A stretch of 64,000 bases of DNA from Dethiobacteria bacterium (GTDB taxonomy: Bacteria; Bacillota; Dethiobacteria; DTU022; UBA8154), in the NCBI GenBank assembly GCA_050942625.1, contig JBMNNS010000001.1, forward strand, positions 8,891-72,890, in the 5' to 3' direction. The position numbers and the translations under genes were made by a program. Of this stretch, positions 5,498 through 47,923 are shown one piece after another; position 1 is the stretch's first letter, and the number at the start of each line of letters is the position of its first letter. A model generated the notes under the pieces. The model had not been told where the DNA came from. It made no database searches and worked only from the letters and a program-made list of their open reading frames with translations.

Positions 5498-6604
5498 CTA
5501 AATCCTTACATAGTATTGCCCGGGCATCTGTTTAATAAGCCCCTTGAGTTCTAAATTTAAAAGTAAGAGATTAATAAGGGTAAGGTGCACTCCGCTTTGA
5601 CGACTAATATCTTCTAAAAGAAGGGGTTCATAGGATATACAGTTAAGTAGTTTAAGTTCGTCTTCTCCTATTTCAAGTTCTTCATGTTCTTTGTTTTTTA
5701 ATGAATCAATTGGATGCTTATTATCACTGGGGAAAACTGCTATTTCCTCTAAAATATCATCGACCTTCTCTGTAAGTTTTGCCCCCATTTTTATTAGTTT
5801 ATGACACCCTCTGCTATAAGGGCTACCAATTCCTCCTGGAACAGCAAAAACTTCTCTGCCTTGTTCCAGGGCAAAATCTGCGGTAATAAGGGCTCCGCTA
5901 TTTTCTTTTGCTTCTACAACTAATATTCCCAAAGAAAGACCGCTTATGATCCTGTTTCTGCGTGGGAAATTCCCGGGGAATGGTTTGGTTTGGGGGGGAA
6001 ATTCGCTAACAACAACGCCAGAATAAGCTATTTTTTCCCAGAGTTTTTTATTTTCGGGTGGATAACAAATATCTACTCCACAGCCCAGCACGGCTACCGT
6101 CTTCCCACCAGAATCTACAGCCCCTTTATGTGACCAGGAATCTATGCCGCGGGCCAGGCCGCTGACTATCGCAAATCCTGAGTTAGACAATAGTGAAGCA
6201 AATTTATAGGCTATTTCCCTCCCGTAAACAGTGTGACGGCGGCTGCCAACTATGCCTAAACAAGGTTTTTCATTTAAAATACCAATATCCCCCTTATAAT
6301 ATAATATGGAAGGGGGATCATAAATATTTAACAATGACTGGGGATAAGCAGGTTCTTCCCAGGTTACTGCAGAACAACCGGTTTTCAGGAACTGTTGCCA
6401 GGATTGTTCTGGATCAATTTTTTGGCGTGCATTAACAATTTGCTGTGTCAGGCTTGGACCAAAACCCCCGATGGCTTGAAACTCACTGGCAGAAGCCTCC
6501 CAGATGGCCACAGGGTTGCCAAAATGCTTGATTAATTTTTTCATCCTCAGTGGTCCAAGGGATGGTATTAAGTTTAATGCATGATAGTATTTTGCGGATA
6601 ACAA
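5498..6604 (-). CDS. dprA: DNA processing protein DprA (Smf)
   Basis: It is 368 aa. 'GIVGSRRHTVYGREIAYKFASLLSNSGFAIVSGLARGIDSWSHKGAV...VLGCGVDICYP' is the DprA Rossmann core. It lies upstream of topA as in Firmicutes. Confidence 0.9.
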   Translation of the reverse strand: MLSAKYYHALNLIPSLGPLRMKKLIKHFGNPVAIWEASASEFQAIGGFGPSLTQQIVNARQKIDPEQSWQQFLKTGCSAVTWEEPAYPQSLLNIYDPPSILYYKGDIGILNEKPCLGIVGSRRHTVYGREIAYKFASLLSNSGFAIVSGLARGIDSWSHKGAVDSGGKTVAVLGCGVDICYPPENKKLWEKIAYSGVVVSEFPPQTKPFPGNFPRRNRIISGLSLGILVVEAKENSGALITADFALEQGREVFAVPGGIGSPYSRGCHKLIKMGAKLTEKVDDILEEIAVFPSDNKHPIDSLKNKEHEELEIGEDELKLLNCISYEPLLLEDISRQSGVHLTLINLLLLNLELKGLIKQMPGQYYVRI

Positions 6605-6644: not shown

Positions 6645-6690
6645 ATGGGTATTTTTTTAGGAATTAGAAACCATGGGTAATTACCCATGG
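6645..6690 (-). terminator. Hairpin and terminator downstream of the aminomutase gene
   Basis: There is a perfect 10-bp palindrome, ccatgggtaa/ttacccatgg, at 6671-6690. On the minus strand it is followed by a U-rich stretch (uuucuaauuccuaaaaaaa). Confidence 0.4.
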
Positions 6691-6730
6691 CTCCAAAATT
6701 AAGTATACTATCAGGCCAGTAGAGGCCCTG

Positions 6731-7963
6731 CTATTCCAAATTTTCATATTCTATAATGCGTTTTTCCCAGGTTCGGACCAGCAACTTGTTAGTTCCCATA
6801 GAGATGAGATACTGGGGAAGCATCGGTGTTTTCCCATAGCCGCCTGGTGCATTTACAATATAAGTTGGTATGGCAAGCCCAGAAGTATATCCTCTTAATT
6901 TCTCCATAATTTCAATACCTTCTTCAACCTTGGTGCGAAAGTGTGAAGTACCTTTTACTCCCTTGGCGTGGAATAAGTAATAAGGCTTGACCATGTTTTT
7001 AAGGAGCTCATGGTTTAATTTTCTCATCAACAAAGGATCATTATTGATACCTTTTAATAATACTGCCTGGTTCCCAAGGCTGATTCCACTTTTGGCAAGG
7101 GCCATTAAAGCTTCCCTTGCATCTGGTGTAATCTCCAAAGGGTGATTGACCTGGATATTAAGATAAAGGGGTAAATGTTCACTTAACATCCGGCATAACT
7201 CAGGTGTAATTCTGTATGGTAATGTAATAGGAACCCTGGACCCCAAACGTTTAATTTCTACGTGGGGTATGCGATCAAGCTCTGTTAGCAACCAATCCAG
7301 GGTTTCATCAGCAAGCATTAAGGCATCTCCACCGGTAAGAAGCACATCTCTTATTTCTTCCGTTTCAGCAATATACTGTATGGCAGCTTCTAAATTTTCC
7401 CTGGGGGTCTCAGTATCCACCTCACCAATATTGCGTCGACGCTGGCAATGGCGACAGAAAGAAGCACACTGGTTAGTTACATTAATAATAAGGCGGTCCG
7501 GATATCTCCGGGTAATTGCCGGGGCAGGTGAAGTAAATTCCTCAGCCATGGGATCCATAACCCCACTACTATCATAATATTCCAGCCCACTGGGTATGGA
7601 CTGCAGGCGAACAGGGTCGTCTTTCTTTTGAGGATCTATAAGACTAAGATAATAAGGCACCACAGCCCAGCGGAATTTAGAACCTGCTAAGGATATTTCT
7701 TCTTTTTCCTCCGCCGTAAGCTCAATTAATTGCGCGAGGGTATCCACATCGGAAATCCGTTTCTTTAACTGCCATTTCCAATCCAGCCATTCCTGATCGG
7801 AGGCCTTAAAAAATGTTTTAATTTTTTCCTGCCGTTCCCTAATCTGTTGCCATTCCGTAAAACCCGTTGGGATAGATCCCTGGTATTCCAGATAATCCTT
7901 AATATTGTCTTTAAGTTCCTTGCAGCGTTTTAAGGCTATCTCCTTACGTACATTTGTTTCCAT
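6731..7963 (-). CDS. eam: KamA-family radical SAM aminomutase; residue signature indicates glutamate 2,3-aminomutase
   Basis: It is 410 aa with the radical-SAM motif 'CASFCRHCQRRR' and the PLP-lysine motif 'NAPGGYGK'. Aligned to Clostridium subterminale lysine 2,3-aminomutase, Asp293 becomes Lys ('HAKGVKGTSHFR' vs 'QCDLSLGLEHFR') and Asp330 becomes Asn ('VNAPGG' vs 'VDAPGG'). Confidence 0.75.
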   Translation of the reverse strand: METNVRKEIALKRCKELKDNIKDYLEYQGSIPTGFTEWQQIRERQEKIKTFFKASDQEWLDWKWQLKKRISDVDTLAQLIELTAEEKEEISLAGSKFRWAVVPYYLSLIDPQKKDDPVRLQSIPSGLEYYDSSGVMDPMAEEFTSPAPAITRRYPDRLIINVTNQCASFCRHCQRRRNIGEVDTETPRENLEAAIQYIAETEEIRDVLLTGGDALMLADETLDWLLTELDRIPHVEIKRLGSRVPITLPYRITPELCRMLSEHLPLYLNIQVNHPLEITPDAREALMALAKSGISLGNQAVLLKGINNDPLLMRKLNHELLKNMVKPYYLFHAKGVKGTSHFRTKVEEGIEIMEKLRGYTSGLAIPTYIVNAPGGYGKTPMLPQYLISMGTNKLLVRTWEKRIIEYENLE

Positions 7964-8038
7964 ATATTAAACCTCCGGAATATAGCTAATATCAAATTTA
8001 CGATAAGGTAATAAATACTTTATTTATGAATTTTTGTT

Positions 8039-8066
8039 ATTATACCATAAATTTAAAAAAGTGTAA
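8039..8066 (-). promoter_or_regulatory. Candidate sigma-A promoter for the aminomutase gene
   Basis: The minus strand reads TTACAC, then a 16-nt spacer, then tgGTATAAT (an extended -10). It is about 75 nt upstream of the start codon. Confidence 0.4.
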
Positions 8067-8118
8067 ATAGATATATTATTACCTATTTCTAGTACGACAA
8101 AGGGATAGTCTGATCTTC

Positions 8119-8484
8119 TTAGCATTCTGTAGAGATTTCTGTTATTCTATTTTTTTCATCAACAAAAACTACCTTGGGGGAATAATTTTGCAGCTCCTCC
8201 TGGGAATAATGGGCATAACTAATAATAATAACAATGTCACCGCTTTGTACCAACCGGGCTGCAGCACCATTCAAGCAAATCTCACCCTTGCCACGCTCTC
8301 CTTTGATGACATATGTTTCCAGTCTGGCTCCATTATTGATATTAACAACATGTACCTTTTCATAGGGCAGGATGTCCGCCTTTTCCAGCAGTTCAGCATC
8401 AATGGTTATACTTCCTACATAATTAAGGTTTGAATCTGTAACAGTTGCCCTGTGTATTTTAGATTTACAAATTGTGCGCCACAA
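8119..8484 (-). CDS. panD: Aspartate 1-decarboxylase proenzyme
   Basis: It is 121 aa. '[29 protein letters not shown]' carries the Gly-Ser self-processing site at VGS. Confidence 0.93.
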
Positions 8485-8487
8485 TTT

Positions 8488-9333
8488 TTACACCTCCAAG
8501 ACAATATTGTCAATTAACCTTGTGTTGCCAAACTTAACAGCGACAGCTATAAGGCATTTGCCCTCAAGTATAGACAAGGGAAATAACTCATGGGCATCTA
8601 CAATTTCAACGTAATCAGGTTTGGCGTTTTGAGCCCGTGAAATAATTTGTAGGATTAGTTGTTTCACCTTTTCTGCTTCCCGTTCTCCCTTTTCTACCAG
8701 TTTTTTAGCTTCTAACAAACTTTCATAGATCACTAATGCCTGCTTCCGATCCTCAGAACTTAAGTACTTATTCCGGGAACTCATTGCCAGCCCGTCCTTT
8801 TCGCGAACAGTAGGAAGAATGATAAACTCTAGATCCATATTCAAGTCCTCTACCATTTTCTTGAGGATCATAGCTTGCTGGGCATCTTTCTGGCCAAAAT
8901 AAGTCCGATCCGGGCAAACAAGGTTAAAGAGTTTTGTCACAACGGTGGTAACACCACGAAAATGTCCTGGCCTTGATGCGCCACAAAGCCCATTGGTCAA
9001 GTTTTCTACCTCTACAAAAGTAGCAAAACCGGGAGGATACATTTCTTTAACAGATGGAGAAAAAATCAGATCACAGCCTACCGAGGCCGCCTTTATTTTG
9101 TCTCTTTCAAGATCACGTGGATATTCATCATAGTCTTCTCCTGGACCAAATTGCATGGGGTTAACAAAAATGCTGATTACTAAGAAATCGTTCTCCGACT
9201 TGGCCTTCTTCATCAGGGAAAGGTGCCCTTCATGTAAAAAACCCATTGTGGGGACAAACCCTATACTTAAGCCCCTTCTTTTAATTTCCCTGATTTTCTT
9301 TTTTAAAGCGGATATTTCTTCGATAACAAGCAT
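8488..9333 (-). CDS. panC: Pantoate--beta-alanine ligase
   Basis: It is 281 aa. 'VPTMGFLHEGHLSLM' is the HxGH motif of class-I-like nucleotidyltransferases. Confidence 0.93.
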   Translation of the reverse strand: MLVIEEISALKKKIREIKRRGLSIGFVPTMGFLHEGHLSLMKKAKSENDFLVISIFVNPMQFGPGEDYDEYPRDLERDKIKAASVGCDLIFSPSVKEMYPPGFATFVEVENLTNGLCGASRPGHFRGVTTVVTKLFNLVCPDRTYFGQKDAQQAMILKKMVEDLNMDLEFIILPTVREKDGLAMSSRNKYLSSEDRKQALVIYESLLEAKKLVEKGEREAEKVKQLILQIISRAQNAKPDYVEIVDAHELFPLSILEGKCLIAVAVKFGNTRLIDNIVLEV

Positions 9334-9508: not shown

Positions 9509-10336
9509 TTATTTGATCTGCTCCAAAACCTCTTCTGGCATTGTGAAAACATGTTTTTCTTCTGGGAAACTGCCATCCCTTACTTCCGACATATATGCTT
9601 TAACCCCTTTTAACATTTCCTCCCTGGCATTGGCATATTGTTTAACAAATTTTGGCCTTTTGCCGGTGTAAAGACCCATAACATCATGATAGACGAGCAC
9701 CTGGCCATCACAATGCAAGCCGGCTCCAATGCCGATAACAGGAATGGAAAGCTTTGCGGTAATAAGCTTTGCTAACTGCCAGGGAATACATTCTAGAACC
9801 ACCATGCAAGCACCTGCTTCTTCCAGTGCTAAGGAGTCCTCAACCATTTTCCTTGCCACTGTGGGATCCTTGCCCTGGACTTTAAAGCCCCCCAGCTGAC
9901 CTACCGATTGTGGAGTTAGCCCCAGGTGCCCTACTAACGGAATACCTGCTTGTGTAATAGCTCGAACTGCTTCAATAATTTCCAGTCCACCTTCGAGTTT
10001 GACGGCCTGGGCCCCGCTTTCCTGAATAATCCTCCCGGCGTTACGAAGGGCATTTTTGGGACTTACTTCATAGGTTAAAAATGGCATGTCTACAATCACG
10101 AAAGCCTTTTTACTGCCTCTGACAACTGCTTTACCATGGTGAATCATATCGTCGAGAGTAACAGGCAGCGTGTCCTGGTAACCCAGCACAACCATCCCTA
10201 AAGAGTCTCCAACCAGAATAGTTTCCACCCCTGCCTCGTCTACCAACTGTGCAGTTGGAAAATCATAAGCTGTGATCATGGTAATCTTTTCATTGTTTTC
10301 TTTCATCTTTTTAAAATCGAGAGTGGTAAAACGCAT
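9509..10336 (-). CDS. panB: 3-methyl-2-oxobutanoate hydroxymethyltransferase
   Basis: It is 275 aa. '[32 protein letters not shown]' is typical of PanB. Confidence 0.93.
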
Positions 10337-10340
10337 TTTT

Positions 10341-11207
10341 TTAGCCTCCTAATAATTTTTTTAAGGCTTTTTGCCCTTCTTCCTGCAGGGTTCCTTTCCT
10401 AACGGCAAGCCCGGCAGTATAAATTCCCAGTTCTTTGTACAGCGGCAAAAAATCCGGGATTAGTTCCTTTAATTGTTTAAGATGAGCGCTAATAGTGGGA
10501 AGATCACCCCTGGCAATCGGGCCGGTTAAAGCTTTTTCAGTGCCAAGCTCCTTGATGTTTTTTAGTGTGGAATCAATAAGAGGGGATAGGGCTTCCATCG
10601 CCTGTCCAGCAGAAATCCCCATTGGCTCATACATCAAAAAAGCCATATCCATCAGTGAGGAAAGATAGTTACAGGCTACACATGCTGCCGCATGATAAAG
10701 GGCTTTCATTTCCGTGGGTATAGAAAGCATCTTTCCTTCCAGGGCTGTTACCAATTCCTCTGCAACAGGGTAGGCTTCCTTGTCTCCTTCTACAGCATAA
10801 TAGGTGCCCGGCAAGGAACGTATTCCCACTTCAAACCCTGGAAATGTTTGCAGGGGGTGAAAAGAGATTACTTGGGCACCTTCTTTACTTGCTGAAAGCA
10901 AAACACTGGAACTATGGGCTCCACTTGTATGCAAAACCAACTGTCCTTTTTTAAAAGCATCCCGAGCTGCCATTTGTTCACATACTTCCTCAATAAGACG
11001 ATCAGGGGTTGTAATAAACACTATTTCCGCATCTGCCGCAGCCTTTGCTGGATCATCAAAAACTGCACAGTCCAATAATCTGGCTGCTGTTTCCCTTGAA
11101 GCCTGAGTTTTAGCAGTAGCGGCCAGAATCCGGTAACCTTTTTCTTTCAAAGCATAACCCAGGACCTTTCCTACGTTTCCAGCACCAATGATTGATATTG
11201 TTTTCAT
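10341..11207 (-). CDS. Rossmann-fold NAD(P)-binding / DUF2520-type oxidoreductase, putative ketopantoate reductase (PanG-like)
   Basis: '[20 protein letters not shown]' is a GxGxxG dinucleotide fold. It is the first gene of the pan operon. The ORF-track start at 11261 is a GTG that runs through the upstream terminator hairpin, whereas the ATG at 11207 has the RBS AAGGTGG. Confidence 0.55.
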
Positions 11208-11221
11208 GACCACCTTACCCC

Positions 11222-11259
11222 GTATAAAATAATAAAGCCTTTCTGCCGAGCAGAAAGGC
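11222..11259 (-). terminator. Intrinsic terminator or attenuator hairpin immediately upstream of the pan-operon RBS
   Basis: Stem gcctttctg, loop ccgag, stem cagaaaggc (9 bp plus a 5-nt loop). On the minus strand it is followed by UUUAUUAUUUUAUAC. Confidence 0.55.
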
Positions 11260-11384
11260 ACAGTATGACCCTTTTCATGTACCCCTGTCCCGGTCCTGTA
11301 TCTGGCTCCAGGCAGAAAAAAAGGTTTATTGATTTGTTTTTTAAAAATTACGCTGGTGCAGGTTCCGGTTCCCGCCCAAAAAAT

Positions 11385-11413
11385 ATTTTACCATTTTTTA
11401 AAACAAGATGCAA
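11385..11413 (-). promoter_or_regulatory. Candidate sigma-A promoter driving the pan leader
   Basis: The minus strand reads TTGCAT, then a 17-nt spacer, then tgGTAAAAT. It is about 170 nt upstream of the panG-like ATG, so the terminator hairpin lies inside the predicted 5' leader. Confidence 0.4.
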
Positions 11414-11439
11414 GAACAAAATTGCTTATATTTAAGTTT

Positions 11440-12438
11440 TTACGGCCACTTATCCTTTAATATCTCCAATAATAGGGTAATACCGTTTTCTATGTCCTTC
11501 AGGTCGACTATTTCTGCCGGTGTATGTACATAGCGGCAGGGAATGGATAACACCCCGGCTGGAACACCCTCCCTGGAAAGATGAATTGCGCCGGCATCAG
11601 TGCCGCCCCTTTCTAGTATTTCCAATTGATAAGGAATTTTATTTTTCTCTGCAATTTCTATCATCCGGCCTGTCACCTCAGGATGACAAATGATAGATGA
11701 ATCTTTAATTTTTATGGCAGGACCTTTGCCCAGAGAAACCTCCATTTTGAATTCAGGTTTTGGTGTGTCGCCTACCCTGGTTACATCTACCGCTATCCCA
11801 TAGTCCGGTTTGAGGCGATATGCAATAGGGCCGGCCCCTCTGAGTCCAACCTCCTCCTGCACAGTAAAGACAAAATAAAGATTGTTTGGCAATGAATCCG
11901 GGACTTTTTTCAAGGTCTCCAACAAAACTGCGCAACCGACGCGGTTATCCAATGATTTGGCAACAATTCTGTCCCCATTTTGGTGAAAGGAGGCAAAAAA
12001 AGCAGCTGTATCACCTATTCTAACCATTTTCAGGGCTTCATCCCTATCTTTAGCCCCTATATCAATATATAATTTGTTTAGGGCCAGGTCTTTTCGTTGT
12101 TTAAGCTTTTCCTGCCCAATAACCCCGACTGTCCCATTACTAAAAATTACTTTAGAGCCAACCAGAGTGTTTAGCAGAAGGCCACCGATGTTGGTAAAAC
12201 GTAAAAACCCTTTTTCATCAATAAAGGTAACCATAAAACCGATTTCATCCATATGGGCTGCCAACAAAATGTCCTTTTTTGCAGCAGGGCTTTTTTTGAT
12301 TGCAACTAAATTTCCAAGGGGATCAATAAAGATTTCATCACAATACTTTTTTGCCTCTTCTTCAATCAATAAGCGTATTTTTTGCTCAGAACCTGCAGGC
12401 CCAAAGGTTGCGGTTAGCTTTTGAATTAAATCCCTCAT
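11440..12438 (-). CDS. M42 family metallo-aminopeptidase (TET/FrvX-like), paralogue 3
   Basis: It is 332 aa. 'AHMDEIGFMVT', 'LDNRVGC' and 'VQEEVGLRGA' are M42 metal-ligand motifs. Confidence 0.88.
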   Translation of the reverse strand: MRDLIQKLTATFGPAGSEQKIRLLIEEEAKKYCDEIFIDPLGNLVAIKKSPAAKKDILLAAHMDEIGFMVTFIDEKGFLRFTNIGGLLLNTLVGSKVIFSNGTVGVIGQEKLKQRKDLALNKLYIDIGAKDRDEALKMVRIGDTAAFFASFHQNGDRIVAKSLDNRVGCAVLLETLKKVPDSLPNNLYFVFTVQEEVGLRGAGPIAYRLKPDYGIAVDVTRVGDTPKPEFKMEVSLGKGPAIKIKDSSIICHPEVTGRMIEIAEKNKIPYQLEILERGGTDAGAIHLSREGVPAGVLSIPCRYVHTPAEIVDLKDIENGITLLLEILKDKWP

Positions 12439-12439
12439 T

Positions 12440-13459
12440 TTACAACCCCCTTATGTTAACTGATCTAATAAAGGAATCTACTATTTCCACAAGGTGTCTC
12501 CAATCATCAAGGCATAACTGAGAAACCGGTGTATGAATATAGCGGCAGGGCGTAGAAATCACACCGGAGATAACACCACCACGGGAAACTGAAACGGCTC
12601 CAGCATCAGTAAAGCTGCCGGTATAACGGCGAAATTGATAGGGCCTTTTTTCTTGCTCGGCTATTTCGATCAAACGCTCAAGAAGCTTAGGGTGCGTAAT
12701 AACTGAATTATCCATTAAGGTAAAAGCGGGACCAGAGCCCAGGGACGTAGAATGATCTTGTTCCTTAGCACCCGGCACATCAACCGCCAGCGTTGTTTCA
12801 ATGATGAGGGCAATCTCAGGTTTTACATGGTAAGCGGCTACTTTTGCCCCCCTAATTCCAACCTCCTCCTGGACTGTAAAGACTGCGGTAAAGTTAAAGG
12901 GGTAATCCCTTTTTAGGATCTGCAACAGAGCTGCACACCCTGCCCTGTTGTCCAGCGCTTTGCCCCTGAAATAATGGTCAGTGCTTTCTGCTGTGGTATC
13001 AAAAGTAACGTAATCACCTATTTTGACATGCTTTTCGGCCTCTTCCTTATTTTTTACACCAATATCAATATATAATTGCTCAACTTCCAGTGTTTTTTGG
13101 CGTTCTTCTTTTTTTTGCAGGTGAATGGCTTTAGCACCAATCACACCACTAATACCGCGGGAACCAATTTTAACGGGCTTGGAAACAAGAAAATCCTTGT
13201 TAACCCCACCTACTAAATAAAAACGCAGGTGGCCGTTTTTTTCTATGGAGGAAATCATTAAACCAACCTCATCCATATGGGCAGAAAGCATAAGGCTTTG
13301 TTCCCCAGCAGTTCCCCCTTCTTTGAAGGCATACAGATTACCCATGGTGTCCACATAATTTTTTATACCCCAGGCCTCCAATTTTTCTCTAATAAAATTT
13401 CTAACCCTTCTTTCATCACCGGAAACACCACTTATTTGGGAAAGTTCTTTTAGATACAT
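12440..13459 (-). CDS. M42 family metallo-aminopeptidase, paralogue 2
   Basis: It is 339 aa. 'AHMDEVGLMIS', 'LDNRAGC' and 'VQEEVGIRGA' are present. Confidence 0.88.
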   Translation of the reverse strand: MYLKELSQISGVSGDERRVRNFIREKLEAWGIKNYVDTMGNLYAFKEGGTAGEQSLMLSAHMDEVGLMISSIEKNGHLRFYLVGGVNKDFLVSKPVKIGSRGISGVIGAKAIHLQKKEERQKTLEVEQLYIDIGVKNKEEAEKHVKIGDYVTFDTTAESTDHYFRGKALDNRAGCAALLQILKRDYPFNFTAVFTVQEEVGIRGAKVAAYHVKPEIALIIETTLAVDVPGAKEQDHSTSLGSGPAFTLMDNSVITHPKLLERLIEIAEQEKRPYQFRRYTGSFTDAGAVSVSRGGVISGVISTPCRYIHTPVSQLCLDDWRHLVEIVDSFIRSVNIRGL

Positions 13460-14502
13460 CTTAATCCCTCCACAAATTCCTCATCTATCCCTGCTACAAA
13501 ATAAGCAAGCAACCTGCCGGCAACCCTGATATCCTCCAGGTCAACCAGCTCAACGGAAGTATGCATGTAGCGTAATGGTATAGAAAGAAGCCCGGTTGGT
13601 ACACCTTCCAGGCTTACCTGGATAGCCCTGGCATCAGTTCCGGTAGGGCCTGGGGAAATATCCTTCTGGCAAGGAAGATGATATTCATGGGCGATTTGCT
13701 GTAGTTTTTCAGCAACATGGGGATGTATGTTTGGTCCATAGGTGACAACCGGTCCTTTACCCAGCTCAGAAACTTCATGTTCCGCTGCCCCCGGAAAATT
13801 GCCATGGCAAACATCGATAGCAATACCGATATCAGGGGCAATACCATATGTCGAAGTTATGGCACCCCTTACGCCCACTTCTTCCTGGACAGTCGCCACC
13901 ATATAAACATCAGCTTCGTGGTTAATACGGGTTAGCTCTTGCAGGCATTGCCATAAAACCGCCACCCCGGCACGATCATCGAGTGCTTTACCGGCCCGGC
14001 ATTTATTCTGGAGGGTAAGAAATTTTCTTTTAATAGCCACAACATTTCCAGGTTTGATAAGCTCACGAACTACTTCCGCCGGAAGGCCGGTGTCAATAAA
14101 CAAATCTTCCATTTTGACACCCTTACCTTTTTCCGAGGCTTTTTTTAGGTGAGGTGCCTTAAAACCAATTATACCAGTCACAGGCTTTTGACCATATACA
14201 GTCACTTCCTGACCTGTTAGGGTACGCTGATCAAAACCCCCAATAGCTGTAAAGCGCAGGAAACCTTCGTCTTCCAACCTGGTAACCATTAGCCCAATTT
14301 CATCCATATGGGCACATAAAATGATCCTTGGCCTCCCTTTTCCCTTTCCTTTTTTATATAGAATAAGGTTTCCCAGACTATCTTTTCTGATACTATCCAA
14401 TTGGGGAGCAAAAATATTTTTAATATAGTTACTTACGTCTTTTTCAAAACCTGAAACACCATCTATTTCTGTTATTTTTTGTAACAGATCATGCAAATCC
14501 AA
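13450..14502 (-). CDS. M42 family metallo-aminopeptidase, paralogue 1
   Basis: It is 350 aa. 'AHMDEIGLMVT', 'LDDRAGV' and 'VQEEVGVRGA' are present. Confidence 0.88.
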   Translation of the reverse strand: MDLHDLLQKITEIDGVSGFEKDVSNYIKNIFAPQLDSIRKDSLGNLILYKKGKGKGRPRIILCAHMDEIGLMVTRLEDEGFLRFTAIGGFDQRTLTGQEVTVYGQKPVTGIIGFKAPHLKKASEKGKGVKMEDLFIDTGLPAEVVRELIKPGNVVAIKRKFLTLQNKCRAGKALDDRAGVAVLWQCLQELTRINHEADVYMVATVQEEVGVRGAITSTYGIAPDIGIAIDVCHGNFPGAAEHEVSELGKGPVVTYGPNIHPHVAEKLQQIAHEYHLPCQKDISPGPTGTDARAIQVSLEGVPTGLLSIPLRYMHTSVELVDLEDIRVAGRLLAYFVAGIDEEFVEGLRCI

Positions 14503-14546: not shown

Positions 14547-15653
14547 CTAAGTTTGTTTGTTTTGCTCTGGGAAGTTATTATAAAGTATTTCTTGTAGTTC
14601 CCTGGTAACTGCATAAACTTTTTCGGCCTGGGGGATGGTTAGGGTCCCTGTGCCGCAACTGGGTGTAATTAAATACTGTTTTGTTAAAAGCCCGGGATCA
14701 ACCCCCTTCTGTGCCAGGCGCTGCACCAAGGCATAAAACCTTTCCTTTAAAGATTGGGCATTTTCCTTTTCAATAGCTTCCGAGGTTGGAACGATGCCCC
14801 AGGCCAGACAGCCGCCCCGGCGCAAAAAGGAGTTCAATTCTTCAGCATAGACTAGCATGGAATCAAAATAGTTATAAGCATCAAAATTAATAATATCAAA
14901 GGGCAACTCCAGTAAAAGGGACCAGTCCACCCCAGAACAACAATGTACGCCTGCATAAGCATCTTCAGCTTTGATTGCAAAAAGGACATCTTCAATACTG
15001 GCAGATATGTCATCCCTTGAGAGGGAAATAAAGGAAGATTGGCCATAGCAGTATATTGCTGGATCGTCAATAAAGATTACTACAGGTAAGGAATGTTTTT
15101 TTAATTCCCGTATCTGGGCCCTTGATATTAAAGCTAAAAGCTTATTAATGATATCCCGCAGTTCTTCTTCATAAAAAGCAACAGTACCGTCTTCTGTACT
15201 AATCTGTAAACCAATGGTAAGTGGCCCACCAACATGGCCTTTTAGAAAGGCAGGCCTTTTCCCAGGTTTATCCCATTTTTCTTTTAAAAAAGCGTAAAAA
15301 CCTGCTGCCGCATCGGCAGGAAAAGAAAAAAAAGAAAGTACTTCTTCCTTTCCCTTGCCCTCTTCTAAAGAATCCAAATAAAATTGATAAAACTGTTCAA
15401 GCTTACCTAACCAGCCCTTCTCTTTGTTAAGGAAAAAAGGTGTATCATCTTTTTCTATTTCAAGCATTTTTAATTTTACCAGCGGGGTCAAATTTTGCCT
15501 GACAAAACTTTCTTTTCTTCCACGTTTTGGGAGTTGGGGCCAGTGTGGTCCATGGGGCAAATATTCTTTTATAAGATCTATAGCTTGATCAGCTTCCTGA
15601 TGGGGTGTACTTCCAACGCCTGTTGCTAAACCATAAAGAAATCCATTCTGCAA
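14547..15653 (-). CDS. MetE C-terminal-domain-like (Meth_synt_2 / URO-D-like fold) zinc methyltransferase-family protein; substrate unknown
   Basis: It is 368 aa. 'VVIFIDDPA' resembles the MetE 'IQIDEPA' motif, 'GVHCCSG' resembles the 'HMCY' Zn-ligand His-x-Cys, and 'ITPSCGTG' resembles 'PDCGL'. There is no N-terminal MetE domain. Confidence 0.4.
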   Translation of the reverse strand: MQNGFLYGLATGVGSTPHQEADQAIDLIKEYLPHGPHWPQLPKRGRKESFVRQNLTPLVKLKMLEIEKDDTPFFLNKEKGWLGKLEQFYQFYLDSLEEGKGKEEVLSFFSFPADAAAGFYAFLKEKWDKPGKRPAFLKGHVGGPLTIGLQISTEDGTVAFYEEELRDIINKLLALISRAQIRELKKHSLPVVIFIDDPAIYCYGQSSFISLSRDDISASIEDVLFAIKAEDAYAGVHCCSGVDWSLLLELPFDIINFDAYNYFDSMLVYAEELNSFLRRGGCLAWGIVPTSEAIEKENAQSLKERFYALVQRLAQKGVDPGLLTKQYLITPSCGTGTLTIPQAEKVYAVTRELQEILYNNFPEQNKQT

Positions 15654-24010: not shown

Positions 24011-25444
24011 ATGAAAGTGGTGAATAAAGTAATGAGCATCTGCTTTTCCAAAATAACGCCTGAAATATTAAAGCTTTCAGATTTATGTAAGAAAAATAGC
24101 AGTATTGATCCCTCTCTCTATGAAAAATATGATGTCAAAAGAGGATTGCGTGATTTAAGTGGAAAAGGTGTGCTAACAGGATTAACAGAAATTTCAGAGA
24201 TAGTTTCCACCAAAATAGTTGATGGGAAAAAAGTTCCTTGCGAGGGCAAATTATATTACAGAGGTATTGATATAGAAGAAATAGTAAATGGGTTCATTAA
24301 AGAAAATCGCTTTGGTTTTGAGGAGATAGCCTACTTGTTAATGTTTGGCGAGCTACCTAATAGCCATGAACTAGAAGAATTTAACCGCATACTTGGTAAT
24401 TACCGTTCACTGCCTACAAATTTTGTGCGGGATATTATTATGAAGGCGCCTAGCCAGGATATGATGAACACACTGGCTCGCAGTGTGTTAACAATGTATG
24501 CTTATGATGATCGTGCCGAAGACGACTCCCTGCCTAATGTTTTGCGCCAGTGTTTACAGTTATTAGCTTTGTTTCCGTTGTTGGCCGTGTATGGATACCA
24601 GGCCTACCGCCACTACCATGATAAAAACAGTCTCTTCATTCATACCCCTAAGCCTGAGCTATCTACGGCAGAAAATATTCTGCATATACTACGGGTTGAT
24701 AGCCAGTATACACCGCTTGAGGCCCGTATTTTGGACCTTGCTTTAGTGCTTCATGCCGAACATGGTGGTGGGAATAACTCCACTTTTACTGTTCACGTGG
24801 TAACTTCTACAGGAACTGACACCTATTCTACTATTGCAGCTGCGATTGGATCCTTAAAAGGATTCAGGCATGGCGGTGCCAACATTAAGGTTATCCAGAT
24901 GTTTGAGGACATGAAAAATAATATAAAGGACTGGACTAATGAGGCCGAAGTGGCGGATTACCTAACAAAATTATTGTGCAAAAAGGCTTTTGATCGTACC
25001 GGGCTTATATATGGCATGGGACATGCGATCTATTCCCTGTCTGACCCACGTGCCAAAATACTACGGAAATTTGTAGAAAGGCTTTCAAAGGAAAAAAATC
25101 GACTGGAGGAATTCCAGCTTTATTCTCTTGTCGAAAGGTTAGCACCGCAAATTATTGCTAAAAAACGACGCATTTATAAAGGCGTCAGCGCCAATGTCGA
25201 TTTTTATAGCGGCTTTGTCTACCATATGCTGGGCCTTCCCATCCAATTATTTACACCATTGTTTGCCATTGCCCGCATTGCAGGTTGGTCGGCACACCGG
25301 CTGGAGGAAATAATCAATATCAACAAAATCATCCGCCCAGCCTATAAAGCTGTTTCGGAATACCAGAAATATATACCTTTGAAAGACCGCGGTTTTCACC
25401 ATAATCATGATCCGGATAACAAATTAAGTATGGCAACTAACTAG
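24011..25444 (+). CDS. Citrate synthase (Si-type citrate/2-methylcitrate synthase family)
   Basis: It is 477 aa. 'LVLHAEHGGGNNSTFTVHVVTSTGTD' (the catalytic His loop) and 'GFRHGGANIKV' are citrate-synthase hallmarks. Confidence 0.9.
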   Translation: MKVVNKVMSICFSKITPEILKLSDLCKKNSSIDPSLYEKYDVKRGLRDLSGKGVLTGLTEISEIVSTKIVDGKKVPCEGKLYYRGIDIEEIVNGFIKENRFGFEEIAYLLMFGELPNSHELEEFNRILGNYRSLPTNFVRDIIMKAPSQDMMNTLARSVLTMYAYDDRAEDDSLPNVLRQCLQLLALFPLLAVYGYQAYRHYHDKNSLFIHTPKPELSTAENILHILRVDSQYTPLEARILDLALVLHAEHGGGNNSTFTVHVVTSTGTDTYSTIAAAIGSLKGFRHGGANIKVIQMFEDMKNNIKDWTNEAEVADYLTKLLCKKAFDRTGLIYGMGHAIYSLSDPRAKILRKFVERLSKEKNRLEEFQLYSLVERLAPQIIAKKRRIYKGVSANVDFYSGFVYHMLGLPIQLFTPLFAIARIAGWSAHRLEEIININKIIRPAYKAVSEYQKYIPLKDRGFHHNHDPDNKLSMATN

Positions 25445-47615: not shown

Positions 47616-47923
47616 CTTACCCGCCCCCTCCCAAAACTTACTGCCTAATTATAACAGATTAATTAAAGTCCATCAAAAAAAAAAATTAACCCCACCATGC
47701 CGTGGACCGAGGTTTTGAACTGCTCTTGCCTAAGGTGGGTGTCCTCTTACATGCTTTATAGGTCCCAGCGAAGGGCTTCTACGCCGCACATAAAGTCGGA
47801 CTCCCTCTTCGTAAATGTTAGCTCAAAACTTTAACGGTTTTGCACGCGCATAGTAGGGTACTTGCAATTAATTCTTAATATTATGATATCATAAACTTTT
47901 ACTAGATGCAAGCCAAAAATTTT
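47616..47923 (-). ncRNA. Structured 5' leader with intrinsic terminator upstream of mgtE; candidate Mg2+-sensing M-box (ykoK) riboswitch
   Basis: The aspS-mgtE gap is 308 nt. On the minus strand, guuuugagc pairs over a long range with guucaaaac around a domain of about 110 nt. Then comes a GC stem (cccacc...ggugggg) and UUAAUUUUUUUUUUU, which sit about 55 nt before the mgtE RBS. Confidence 0.4.

Follow-up and report, generated by a model that had tools for sequence, protein, structure and literature searches.

The predicted product of the eam gene, which lies in a 64-kb window (the whole 64,000-nucleotide stretch of Dethiobacteria DNA that was analysed), is glutamate 2,3-aminomutase (Eam, EC 5.4.3.9), an assignment supported by residue signature, family models, and phylogeny (Table 1). 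Taken together, it is highly probable that Eam is a glutamate 2,3-aminomutase, that eam forms its own transcription unit, that its adjacency to the pan genes is inherited, and that its role is most likely in compatible-solute synthesis. The direct observations on eam concern its sequence features, family placement, transcription signals, and comparative gene order, and each is described below together with the readings that it favors or disfavors.

Table 1. Positions of eam, its putative transcription signals, and adjacent genes in the window
Feature	Coordinates	Strand	Description
eam, predicted glutamate 2,3-aminomutase (KamA-family radical SAM/PLP enzyme)	6731..7963	-	410 aa; TIGR04368, 667.9 bits
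dprA, downstream neighbor of eam	5498..6604	-	profile matches
Terminator-like hairpin GGAGCCAUGGGU-AAUU-ACCCAUGGUUUC and U-rich tract	6666..6699 (approximate)	-	between the eam stop codon and dprA
eam leader, AT-rich, about 75 nt	7964..8038	-	unstructured, fold z-score +1.19
Putative eam promoter, sigma-70-type, extended -10	8039..8067	-	TTTACA-N17-TGgTATAAT, about 75 nt upstream of the ATG
panD (aspartate 1-decarboxylase), last gene of the separate pan operon	8119..8484	-	TIGR00223, 167 bits (cutoff 106)
panC	8488..9333	-	profile matches
panB	9509..10336	-	profile matches
Rossmann/DUF2520 gene, first gene of the pan operon	10341..11206	-	PF10727, PF10728
pan operon leader	11227..11378	-	pan motif RNA (11281-11378), then intrinsic terminator (11227-11259)

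Sequence Features of Eam

The eam open reading frame (ORF) starts with ATG, about 8 nt downstream of a GGAGG Shine–Dalgarno sequence. When all PDB sequences were searched with phmmer, the sole match of Eam was the lysine 2,3-aminomutase (LAM) of Clostridium subterminale (PDB 2A5H; E = 1.3e-116), with 358 residues aligned (Eam residues 49–406 against residues 7–365 of the chain). The LAM cluster cysteines (125/129/132) correspond in this alignment to Cys166, Cys170, and Cys173 of Eam, which constitute the CxxxCxxC motif within NQCASFCRHCQRRR. PLP-binding Lys337 of LAM corresponds to Lys378, and carboxylate-binding Arg134 corresponds to Arg175. Asp293 of LAM is replaced by Lys334, located in YLFHAKGVKGTSHFR, and Asp330 is replaced by Asn371, located together with Lys378 in IVNAPGGYGK. 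A MAFFT alignment of 233 sequences yielded the same residue equivalences. The initial annotation had described the radical-SAM motif, the PLP lysine, and the changes of Asp293 to Lys and Asp330 to Asn, all of which are borne out by these alignments; the C. subterminale peptides that it quoted as comparators match the 2A5H sequence exactly.

Lys334, Asn371, and Lys378 are invariant both in an 18-member alignment of close homologs and in all of 80 relatives, which were sampled at the species level from species-representative genomes. The substitutions are therefore a trait of the family and not a chance occurrence. Eam also matches the Pfam models Radical_SAM and LAM_C, the latter over only positions 1–55 of 127.

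Family Assignment and Phylogeny

The NCBIfam equivalog model for glutamate 2,3-aminomutase (TIGR04368) matches Eam from end to end (Eam residues 7–408 of 410; model positions 3–404 of 404) with a score of 667.9 bits, which exceeds the cutoff of 650 by only 18 bits. The next-best family, lysine 2,3-aminomutase (KamA/AblA; TIGR03820), scores 458.1 bits, below its cutoff of 525.4, and the models for arginine 2,3-aminomutase (TIGR04468; 350.5 bits, cutoff 600) and EpmB (TIGR03821; 220 bits, cutoff 369.3) are likewise below threshold. We take the Lys/Asn (K/N) pair at the positions of LAM Asp293 and Asp330 to be the criterion for glutamate 2,3-aminomutase, together with the NCBIfam model; a literature search for Asp293/Asp330 gave no match. 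An identical protein in public databases has been named glutamate 2,3-aminomutase by JGI, and the 90% cluster of Eam includes the NCBI entry MGI5875208.1 (“MAG: glutamate 2,3-aminomutase [Dethiobacteria bacterium]”). The name assigned here is correct, but it was already in use.

For comparison with the wider KamA superfamily, representatives of 50%-identity clusters were searched exhaustively with HMMER, and the best 150 of 1159 proteins found at E ≤ 1e-30 were combined with the 80 eam relatives, LAM 2A5H, and Escherichia coli EpmB. Eam and all 80 relatives have the K/N pair at the two diagnostic positions, as do 7 of the 14 best-ranked cluster representatives. The corresponding residues are D/D in 109 LAM-type sequences, including LAM itself, and D/E in EpmB. 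The tree was constructed by neighbor joining (NJ) only, from 178 sequences and 331 columns with 200 bootstraps. Eam was located inside a clade of exclusively K/N sequences in 200 of the 200 bootstraps (at least 29 members; median, 46 of 48), and LAM joined this clade only at a much deeper node.

As a single split, the whole K/N set is weak (35 of 200 bootstraps), because its boundary is blurred by a few deep-branching K/N representatives, among which three aberrant sequences (P0159, P0160, and P0229) nest. The K/N-only clade around Eam was therefore used as the more robust statistic, and the weak split of the full set leaves the placement of Eam unaffected. In alignment and phylogeny with KamA and EpmB, Eam thus does not group with the lysine 2,3-aminomutases. 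The assignment to glutamate 2,3-aminomutase proposed in the initial annotation accordingly stands, with the TIGR04368 score, the K/N signature, the clade apart from LAM, and the public name all in agreement.

Physiological Role of β-Glutamate

β-Glutamate has been established as an anionic compatible solute (PMC1224877), and several reports connect eam with osmotic conditions. c-di-AMP riboswitches have been linked to osmotic stress-response genes, and a tandem Na+/c-di-AMP switch has been described that controls a gene of the KamA family; Na+ riboswitches have also been reported upstream of eam, and eam and β-glutamate have been linked to osmoprotection (PMC9337991). In Moorella, eam is among the genes most strongly induced by blue light, which the authors interpret as an osmoprotective response (PMC7835215). 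A literature search for Dethiobacter together with β-glutamate returned no papers.

An Rfam scan of eight relatives from non-syntenic loci revealed three in which a c-di-AMP riboswitch immediately precedes eam. A covariance model was built from these three riboswitches and run on the 80 loci and the window (1.07 Mb), resulting in 20 hits, all of which are on the eam strand and 40–400 nt upstream of eam, with none elsewhere in the 1.07 Mb. The eam-linked riboswitches include those of Neomoorella, Desulforamulus, Desulfotomaculum, Desulfofundulus, and Thermodesulfobacterium, and that of one relative (L009) in the same subclade as the window; another example is the riboswitch of L073 (7810–7948). 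The earlier suggestion that the enzyme provides a compatible solute is plausible and is indirectly supported by the c-di-AMP riboswitch that precedes eam in 20 of the 80 relatives, but the window itself gave no hit with the covariance model. An osmolyte role is therefore, on the basis of the riboswitches in relatives and the literature, the best-supported, although indirect, inference for this gene, which has a plain promoter: the window eam most likely serves the synthesis of β-glutamate as an anionic compatible solute.

The main rival to osmolyte synthesis is a catabolic role, in which the same enzyme would carry out the entry step of anaerobic glutamate degradation via β-glutamate. A preprint assigns the bacterial enzyme to glutamate fermentation (10.1101/2025.11.21.689712). 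Consistent with this, a TAXI-type TRAP transporter, a possible uptake system, follows eam on the same strand in 11 relatives, and in 11 soda-lake loci eam faces a convergent gene similar to ADP-forming acyl-CoA synthetases. However, genes for a CoA-transferase, an ammonia-lyase, or a dehydrogenase are absent beside the window eam, whose neighbors are housekeeping genes, and the c-di-AMP riboswitch context in 20 relatives indicates osmotic homeostasis. In addition, the TRAP and riboswitch contexts belong to clades different from that of the window, apart from the riboswitch of L009. A catabolic role is thus unlikely, and the synthesis of an anionic compatible solute is the preferred reading.

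Catalytic Mechanism and Substrate

The mechanism and substrate proposed here follow from homology to characterized enzymes. The [4Fe-4S] cluster on Cys166, Cys170, and Cys173 would cleave S-adenosylmethionine to generate the 5′-deoxyadenosyl radical, and PLP, bound to Lys378 as an aldimine, would move the amino group from C2 to C3. Arg175 probably holds the α-carboxylate of the substrate. Lys334 and Asn371 replace both of the Asp residues that hold the ε-ammonium group of lysine, which suggests a fit for the γ-carboxylate of L-glutamate; the predicted product is β-glutamate.

Various known enzymes are instructive for comparison. The Clostridioides difficile enzyme is reportedly a biochemically characterized bacterial glutamate 2,3-aminomutase, described by Ruzicka and Frey in 2007, and to our knowledge it is the only bacterial member to have been assayed. 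As compared via the family model, Eam shares with it the end-to-end match to TIGR04368, the CxxxCxxC motif, the PLP lysine, and the Lys/Asn pair. The two proteins are also similar in length (about 410–420 amino acids), and both have an N-terminal extension and lack the LAM C-terminal domain. However, the window protein comes from another class (Dethiobacteria), and its score is barely above the TIGR04368 cutoff. The methanogen glutamate 2,3-aminomutase, which is said (Tunckanat and colleagues, in 2022) to be tied to salt tolerance, catalyzes the same reaction as that predicted for Eam.

LAM of C. subterminale SB4 belongs to the same fold family and uses the same set of cofactors, with the cluster cysteines, Arg134, and Lys337 conserved in Eam. 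Besides the changes of Asp293 to Lys and Asp330 to Asn, Cys268 of LAM, which we take from 2A5H to be a Zn ligand, is replaced by Asp309 in Eam. The C-terminus of Eam lies at approximately LAM residue 369, four residues past the position of LAM residue 365, and the C-terminal region of LAM presumably carries the remaining Zn-ligand cysteines. At the other end, Eam has about 48 extra N-terminal residues, which are conserved within the Eam family (18-member alignment). Eam also differs from LAM in its score below the TIGR03820 cutoff and in its separate clade.

EpmB (YjeK) of E. coli, the lysine 2,3-aminomutase of EF-P β-lysylation, is another member of the KamA family and retains the cluster motif, the Arg residue, and the PLP lysine. 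Unlike Eam, it has D/E instead of K/N at the diagnostic positions, and the score of Eam against TIGR03821 (220 bits versus 369.3) separates the two. EpmB is the most distant of the three tree anchors (NJ distance 1.35, versus 0.81 to LAM). Whereas E. coli epmB adjoins efp, the window eam has neither efp nor epmA as a neighbor. In Streptomyces, IdnL4 of the incednine cluster has been proposed to supply β-glutamate as a radical SAM glutamate 2,3-aminomutase (PMC11284099). IdnL4 is encoded in a secondary-metabolite cluster with the β-glutamate decarboxylase IdnL3, whereas no such partner or cluster is present near the window eam.

That only one bacterial member has been assayed, and that the TIGR04368 cutoff is exceeded by such a small number of bits, leaves room for the view that the annotation has been over-extended from a single characterized enzyme and that Eam acts on lysine or another amino acid (e.g., alanine, aspartate, or 2-aminoadipate). 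This is very unlikely, as both lysine-binding Asp residues are gone and the cationic/polar pair in their place suits a carboxylate. In addition, the lysine, arginine, and EpmB models all remain under their cutoffs, the K/N-only clade was recovered in every bootstrap, and efp and epmA are absent nearby. L-Glutamate is thus the probable substrate of Eam.

Transcription Signals at eam and the pan Operon

The transcription signals predict that eam is its own transcription unit, outside the pan operon. The putative eam promoter has 11 of 12 matches with the TG of the extended -10 element present, and is the best promoter match in a 6-kb region. When the panD–eam spacer of the window was aligned with those of 13 syntenic relatives, the promoter block was the only conserved island. 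Besides the window, 8 of the 13 relatives have the strict pattern (TTTACA-N17-TGnTATAAT), and near-matches can be recognized by eye in 4 more. No known riboswitch was found in the eam leader of the window, where Rfam matches were only at chance level and far under the gathering scores.

The hairpin behind eam consists of 12 bp and is located 40 nt past the stop codon. Although unlisted by a simple terminator scan, it was confirmed by folding (96-nt fold, -28 kcal/mol, z = -2.68), and only 1 of 200 shuffles was as good. In the form proposed here, the eam unit would thus run from a strong and conserved extended -10 promoter through a short leader lacking structure to the hairpin and U-rich tract behind the stop codon.

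The pan operon would be governed at its own 5′ end by the pan motif RNA and the terminator. The RNA (Rfam RF01749) scores 47.1 bits, above its gathering score of 36.2, and the first gene of the operon, encoding the DUF2520 protein, likely starts at the ATG at 11206, not at the GTG at 11261. After panD, the simple terminator scan detected no terminator in the window, and folding was unconvincing (z = +0.43), so some read-through from the pan operon into eam is possible. In several relatives (e.g., L057 and L064), a hairpin with a T-run appears, by eye, to follow panD.

Gene Order around eam

As stated in the initial annotation, eam is adjacent to the pan genes: panD, panC, and panB are located immediately upstream on the same strand, and the panD–eam spacer is 155 bp. 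Because the minus strand encodes nearly all genes of the window, the shared orientation of the pan genes and eam carries no weight. Gene order was compared by tblastn between the fifteen genes nearest to eam in the window and the 80 loci, with clustering of all flanking ORFs.

Pan genes lie beside eam in 14 of the 80 loci, and the remaining 66 have no pan gene in the flank examined. All 14 loci have the same backbone, consisting of orf368, three M42 peptidase genes, DUF2520-panB-panC-panD, eam, dprA, topA, xerC, hslV, and hslU; their shared possession of this full backbone indicates shared ancestry. The backbone is that of Dethiobacter/Syntrophomonadaceae-type genomes, many of which come from soda-lake and serpentinite samples. 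One locus with this synteny (L011), from a Dethiobacter alkaliphilus MAG, is 75% identical. Six loci (L027, L030, L034, L037, L039, and L070) have three M42 peptidase genes followed by eam without pan genes between them; dprA follows eam in five of these, and the contig of the sixth (L037) ends just past eam. In a further five (L025, L031, L042, L043, and L062), the genes preceding eam-dprA-topA are unrelated or the contig ends there. Within the window's subclade, two members (L007 and L009; 71–72% identical) have neither pan genes nor dprA beside eam, and on the eam tree the loci with adjacent pan genes do not form a monophyletic group. The commonest neighbor of eam is dprA (24 of 80 loci), a gene with no evident link to β-amino acids. 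The pan–eam adjacency is thus not conserved across eam-bearing lineages, being present in 14 of 80 loci and broken within the backbone in six or more; it is an inherited gene order in one lineage, not a functional β-amino acid cluster.

The contexts of eam across the 80 species fall into at least three types that exclude one another: with a c-di-AMP riboswitch (20), in a TAXI-TRAP operon (11), and in a housekeeping dprA backbone (24).

β-Glutamate (3-aminoglutarate) is no intermediate of β-alanine or pantothenate synthesis, and PanD already supplies β-alanine. Coupling of eam to panD and panBC, by co-transcription or by a shared metabolic purpose, had been suggested in the initial annotation as a genomic neighborhood devoted to β-amino acids. 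The genes are indeed adjacent and co-oriented with a 155-bp spacer, the window gave no terminator behind panD, and the arrangement recurs in 14 loci. This recurrence, however, is explained by shared ancestry, and the pan genes are missing from six loci with the same backbone and from the flanks of most loci. Among all 80 loci, dprA is a commoner neighbor than pan. Moreover, the spacer contains a conserved promoter specific to eam, the pan operon has its own leader, the apparent hairpin and T-run after panD in several relatives point the same way, and co-orientation is the rule in this window. Comparative gene order, transcription signals, and knowledge of the pathway therefore do not support the β-amino acid neighborhood, which is largely refuted by the comparative data and is the least probable of the readings considered here. 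The possibility that pantothenate synthesis is fed by a natural alanine 2,3-aminomutase was also rejected, as panD is present and the K/N pocket and the family model indicate glutamate.

Implications

The enzyme family, its Lys/Asn pair, and its product have already been published, and standard pipelines already name the protein. The finding is thus of little importance beyond correct annotation. Its useful result is a negative one, namely that adjacency to pan genes should not be taken as a functional β-amino acid cluster.

A more speculative and quite improbable idea is that Dethiobacteria may have given up control by a c-di-AMP riboswitch, as found in 20 other species, in favor of a strong, unregulated promoter. 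β-Glutamate would then be produced constitutively, as a standing anionic solute at high pH and salt, and read-through from the pan operon would provide a second, pantothenate-linked input. If this is the case, the pan adjacency would have a weak regulatory meaning and no metabolic one. For the family as a whole, the link between eam and the c-di-AMP riboswitch, present in about a quarter of the sampled species, provides comparative evidence for osmoregulated β-glutamate synthesis in bacteria.

Genomic contexts of eam in related genomes

In 20 of the 80 species-representative genomes that carry a relative of the glutamate 2,3-aminomutase gene eam, a covariance-model search placed a c-di-AMP riboswitch directly 5′ of eam, and the searched loci contained no match away from this gene. 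Four of these riboswitches are listed in the table, and 16 further loci were matched. A c-di-AMP switch has been reported for a KamA-family gene, named ablA in the source, and the same study ties eam to Na+ riboswitches only (PMC9337991). In our literature search, this study was the sole source in which a c-di-AMP riboswitch and a KamA-family aminomutase were found together. The gene for a TrkA_C-containing regulator of the GntR family lies immediately 5′ of the riboswitch–eam unit in L063, L073, L077, and L078, an arrangement that is seen in the Desulfotomaculum/Desulforamulus group.

Eleven loci of diverse taxonomy (L016, L033, L040, L047, L050, L052, L056, L060, L065, L069, and L079) have co-oriented genes for a TAXI-type TRAP transporter downstream of eam. 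The solute-binding protein of this transporter is of the NMT1_3 family, DUF1850 is usually present as well, and the permease is a fused DctM protein. There is no overlap between the loci with this transporter and those with the riboswitch.

Directly 5′ of eam and co-oriented with it, 13 loci (listed as L014–L024, L029, L033, L036, L040, and L041), mostly from Syntrophomonadaceae MAGs of soda lakes, encode a conserved protein of about 318 amino acids without a Pfam match. Most of these loci also have convergent downstream genes for an ADP-forming acyl-CoA synthetase-like protein and a DRTGG/AAA_26 protein. Two cluster representatives with the Lys/Asn signature, P0122 (579 aa) and P0123 (635 aa), exceed the other signature-bearing representatives by 170–225 residues, a difference that implies fusion of Eam to an additional domain at its C-terminus.

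Three MAG contigs (L001, L005, and L009) are labelled Desulfovibrio or Desulfovibrionaceae, and their Eam proteins are 71–75% identical to that of the window. L001 and L005 have the Dethiobacteria-type backbone M42–pan–eam–dprA–topA–xerC–hslVU. The bins of all three are probably misclassified or chimeric.

Leader of the pan operon and other features of the window

The pan leader has the order pan-motif RNA, terminator, DUF2520–panB–panC–panD. The pan-motif RNA is an orphan cis-regulatory element. A strong intrinsic terminator (GCCTTTCTGC-TCGG-GCAGAAAGGC followed by a U-run) starts 21 nt past it. The start of the longest DUF2520 ORF, a GTG at 11261, overlaps this terminator, and the true start is therefore probably the ATG at 11206.

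The features below were located in the window and in loci of eam relatives.

Coordinates of features in the window and in representative loci
Feature	Location	Position (strand)	Remark
Pan-motif RNA and terminator	window	11227-11378 (-)	Rfam; riboswitch-like pan operon leader
Promoter-like site	window	~11385-11415	next to pan leader
Three M42-family aminopeptidase paralogues	window	11440-14502 (-)	tandem
368-aa ORF	window	14547-15653 (-)	next after M42 paralogues
Citrate synthase gene	window	24011-25444 (+)	clear plus-strand exception
6S RNA	window	47685-47862 (-)	RF00013, 95 bits; between mgtE and aspartate-tRNA ligase genes
c-di-AMP riboswitch	L073	7810-7948	upstream of eam
c-di-AMP riboswitch	L077	7813-7949	upstream of eam
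c-di-AMP riboswitch	L046	7740-7892	upstream of eam
c-di-AMP riboswitch	L009	25-155	upstream of eam
GntR/TrkA_C regulator	L077	7079-7705	example
~318-aa protein	L019	240-1196	example
TRAP transporter	L047	10585-13395	example
TRAP transporter	L065	2186-3250	example

The M42 paralogues are about 35–43% identical among themselves. The 368-aa ORF has no NCBIfam match, and its position is kept in 13 related genomes. Strand bias over window positions 1-64000 is extreme, with essentially all credible genes on the minus strand, and the cumulative GC skew drops monotonically over the same span; both are as expected if the window lies within a single replichore and the genome is of the Firmicute type.
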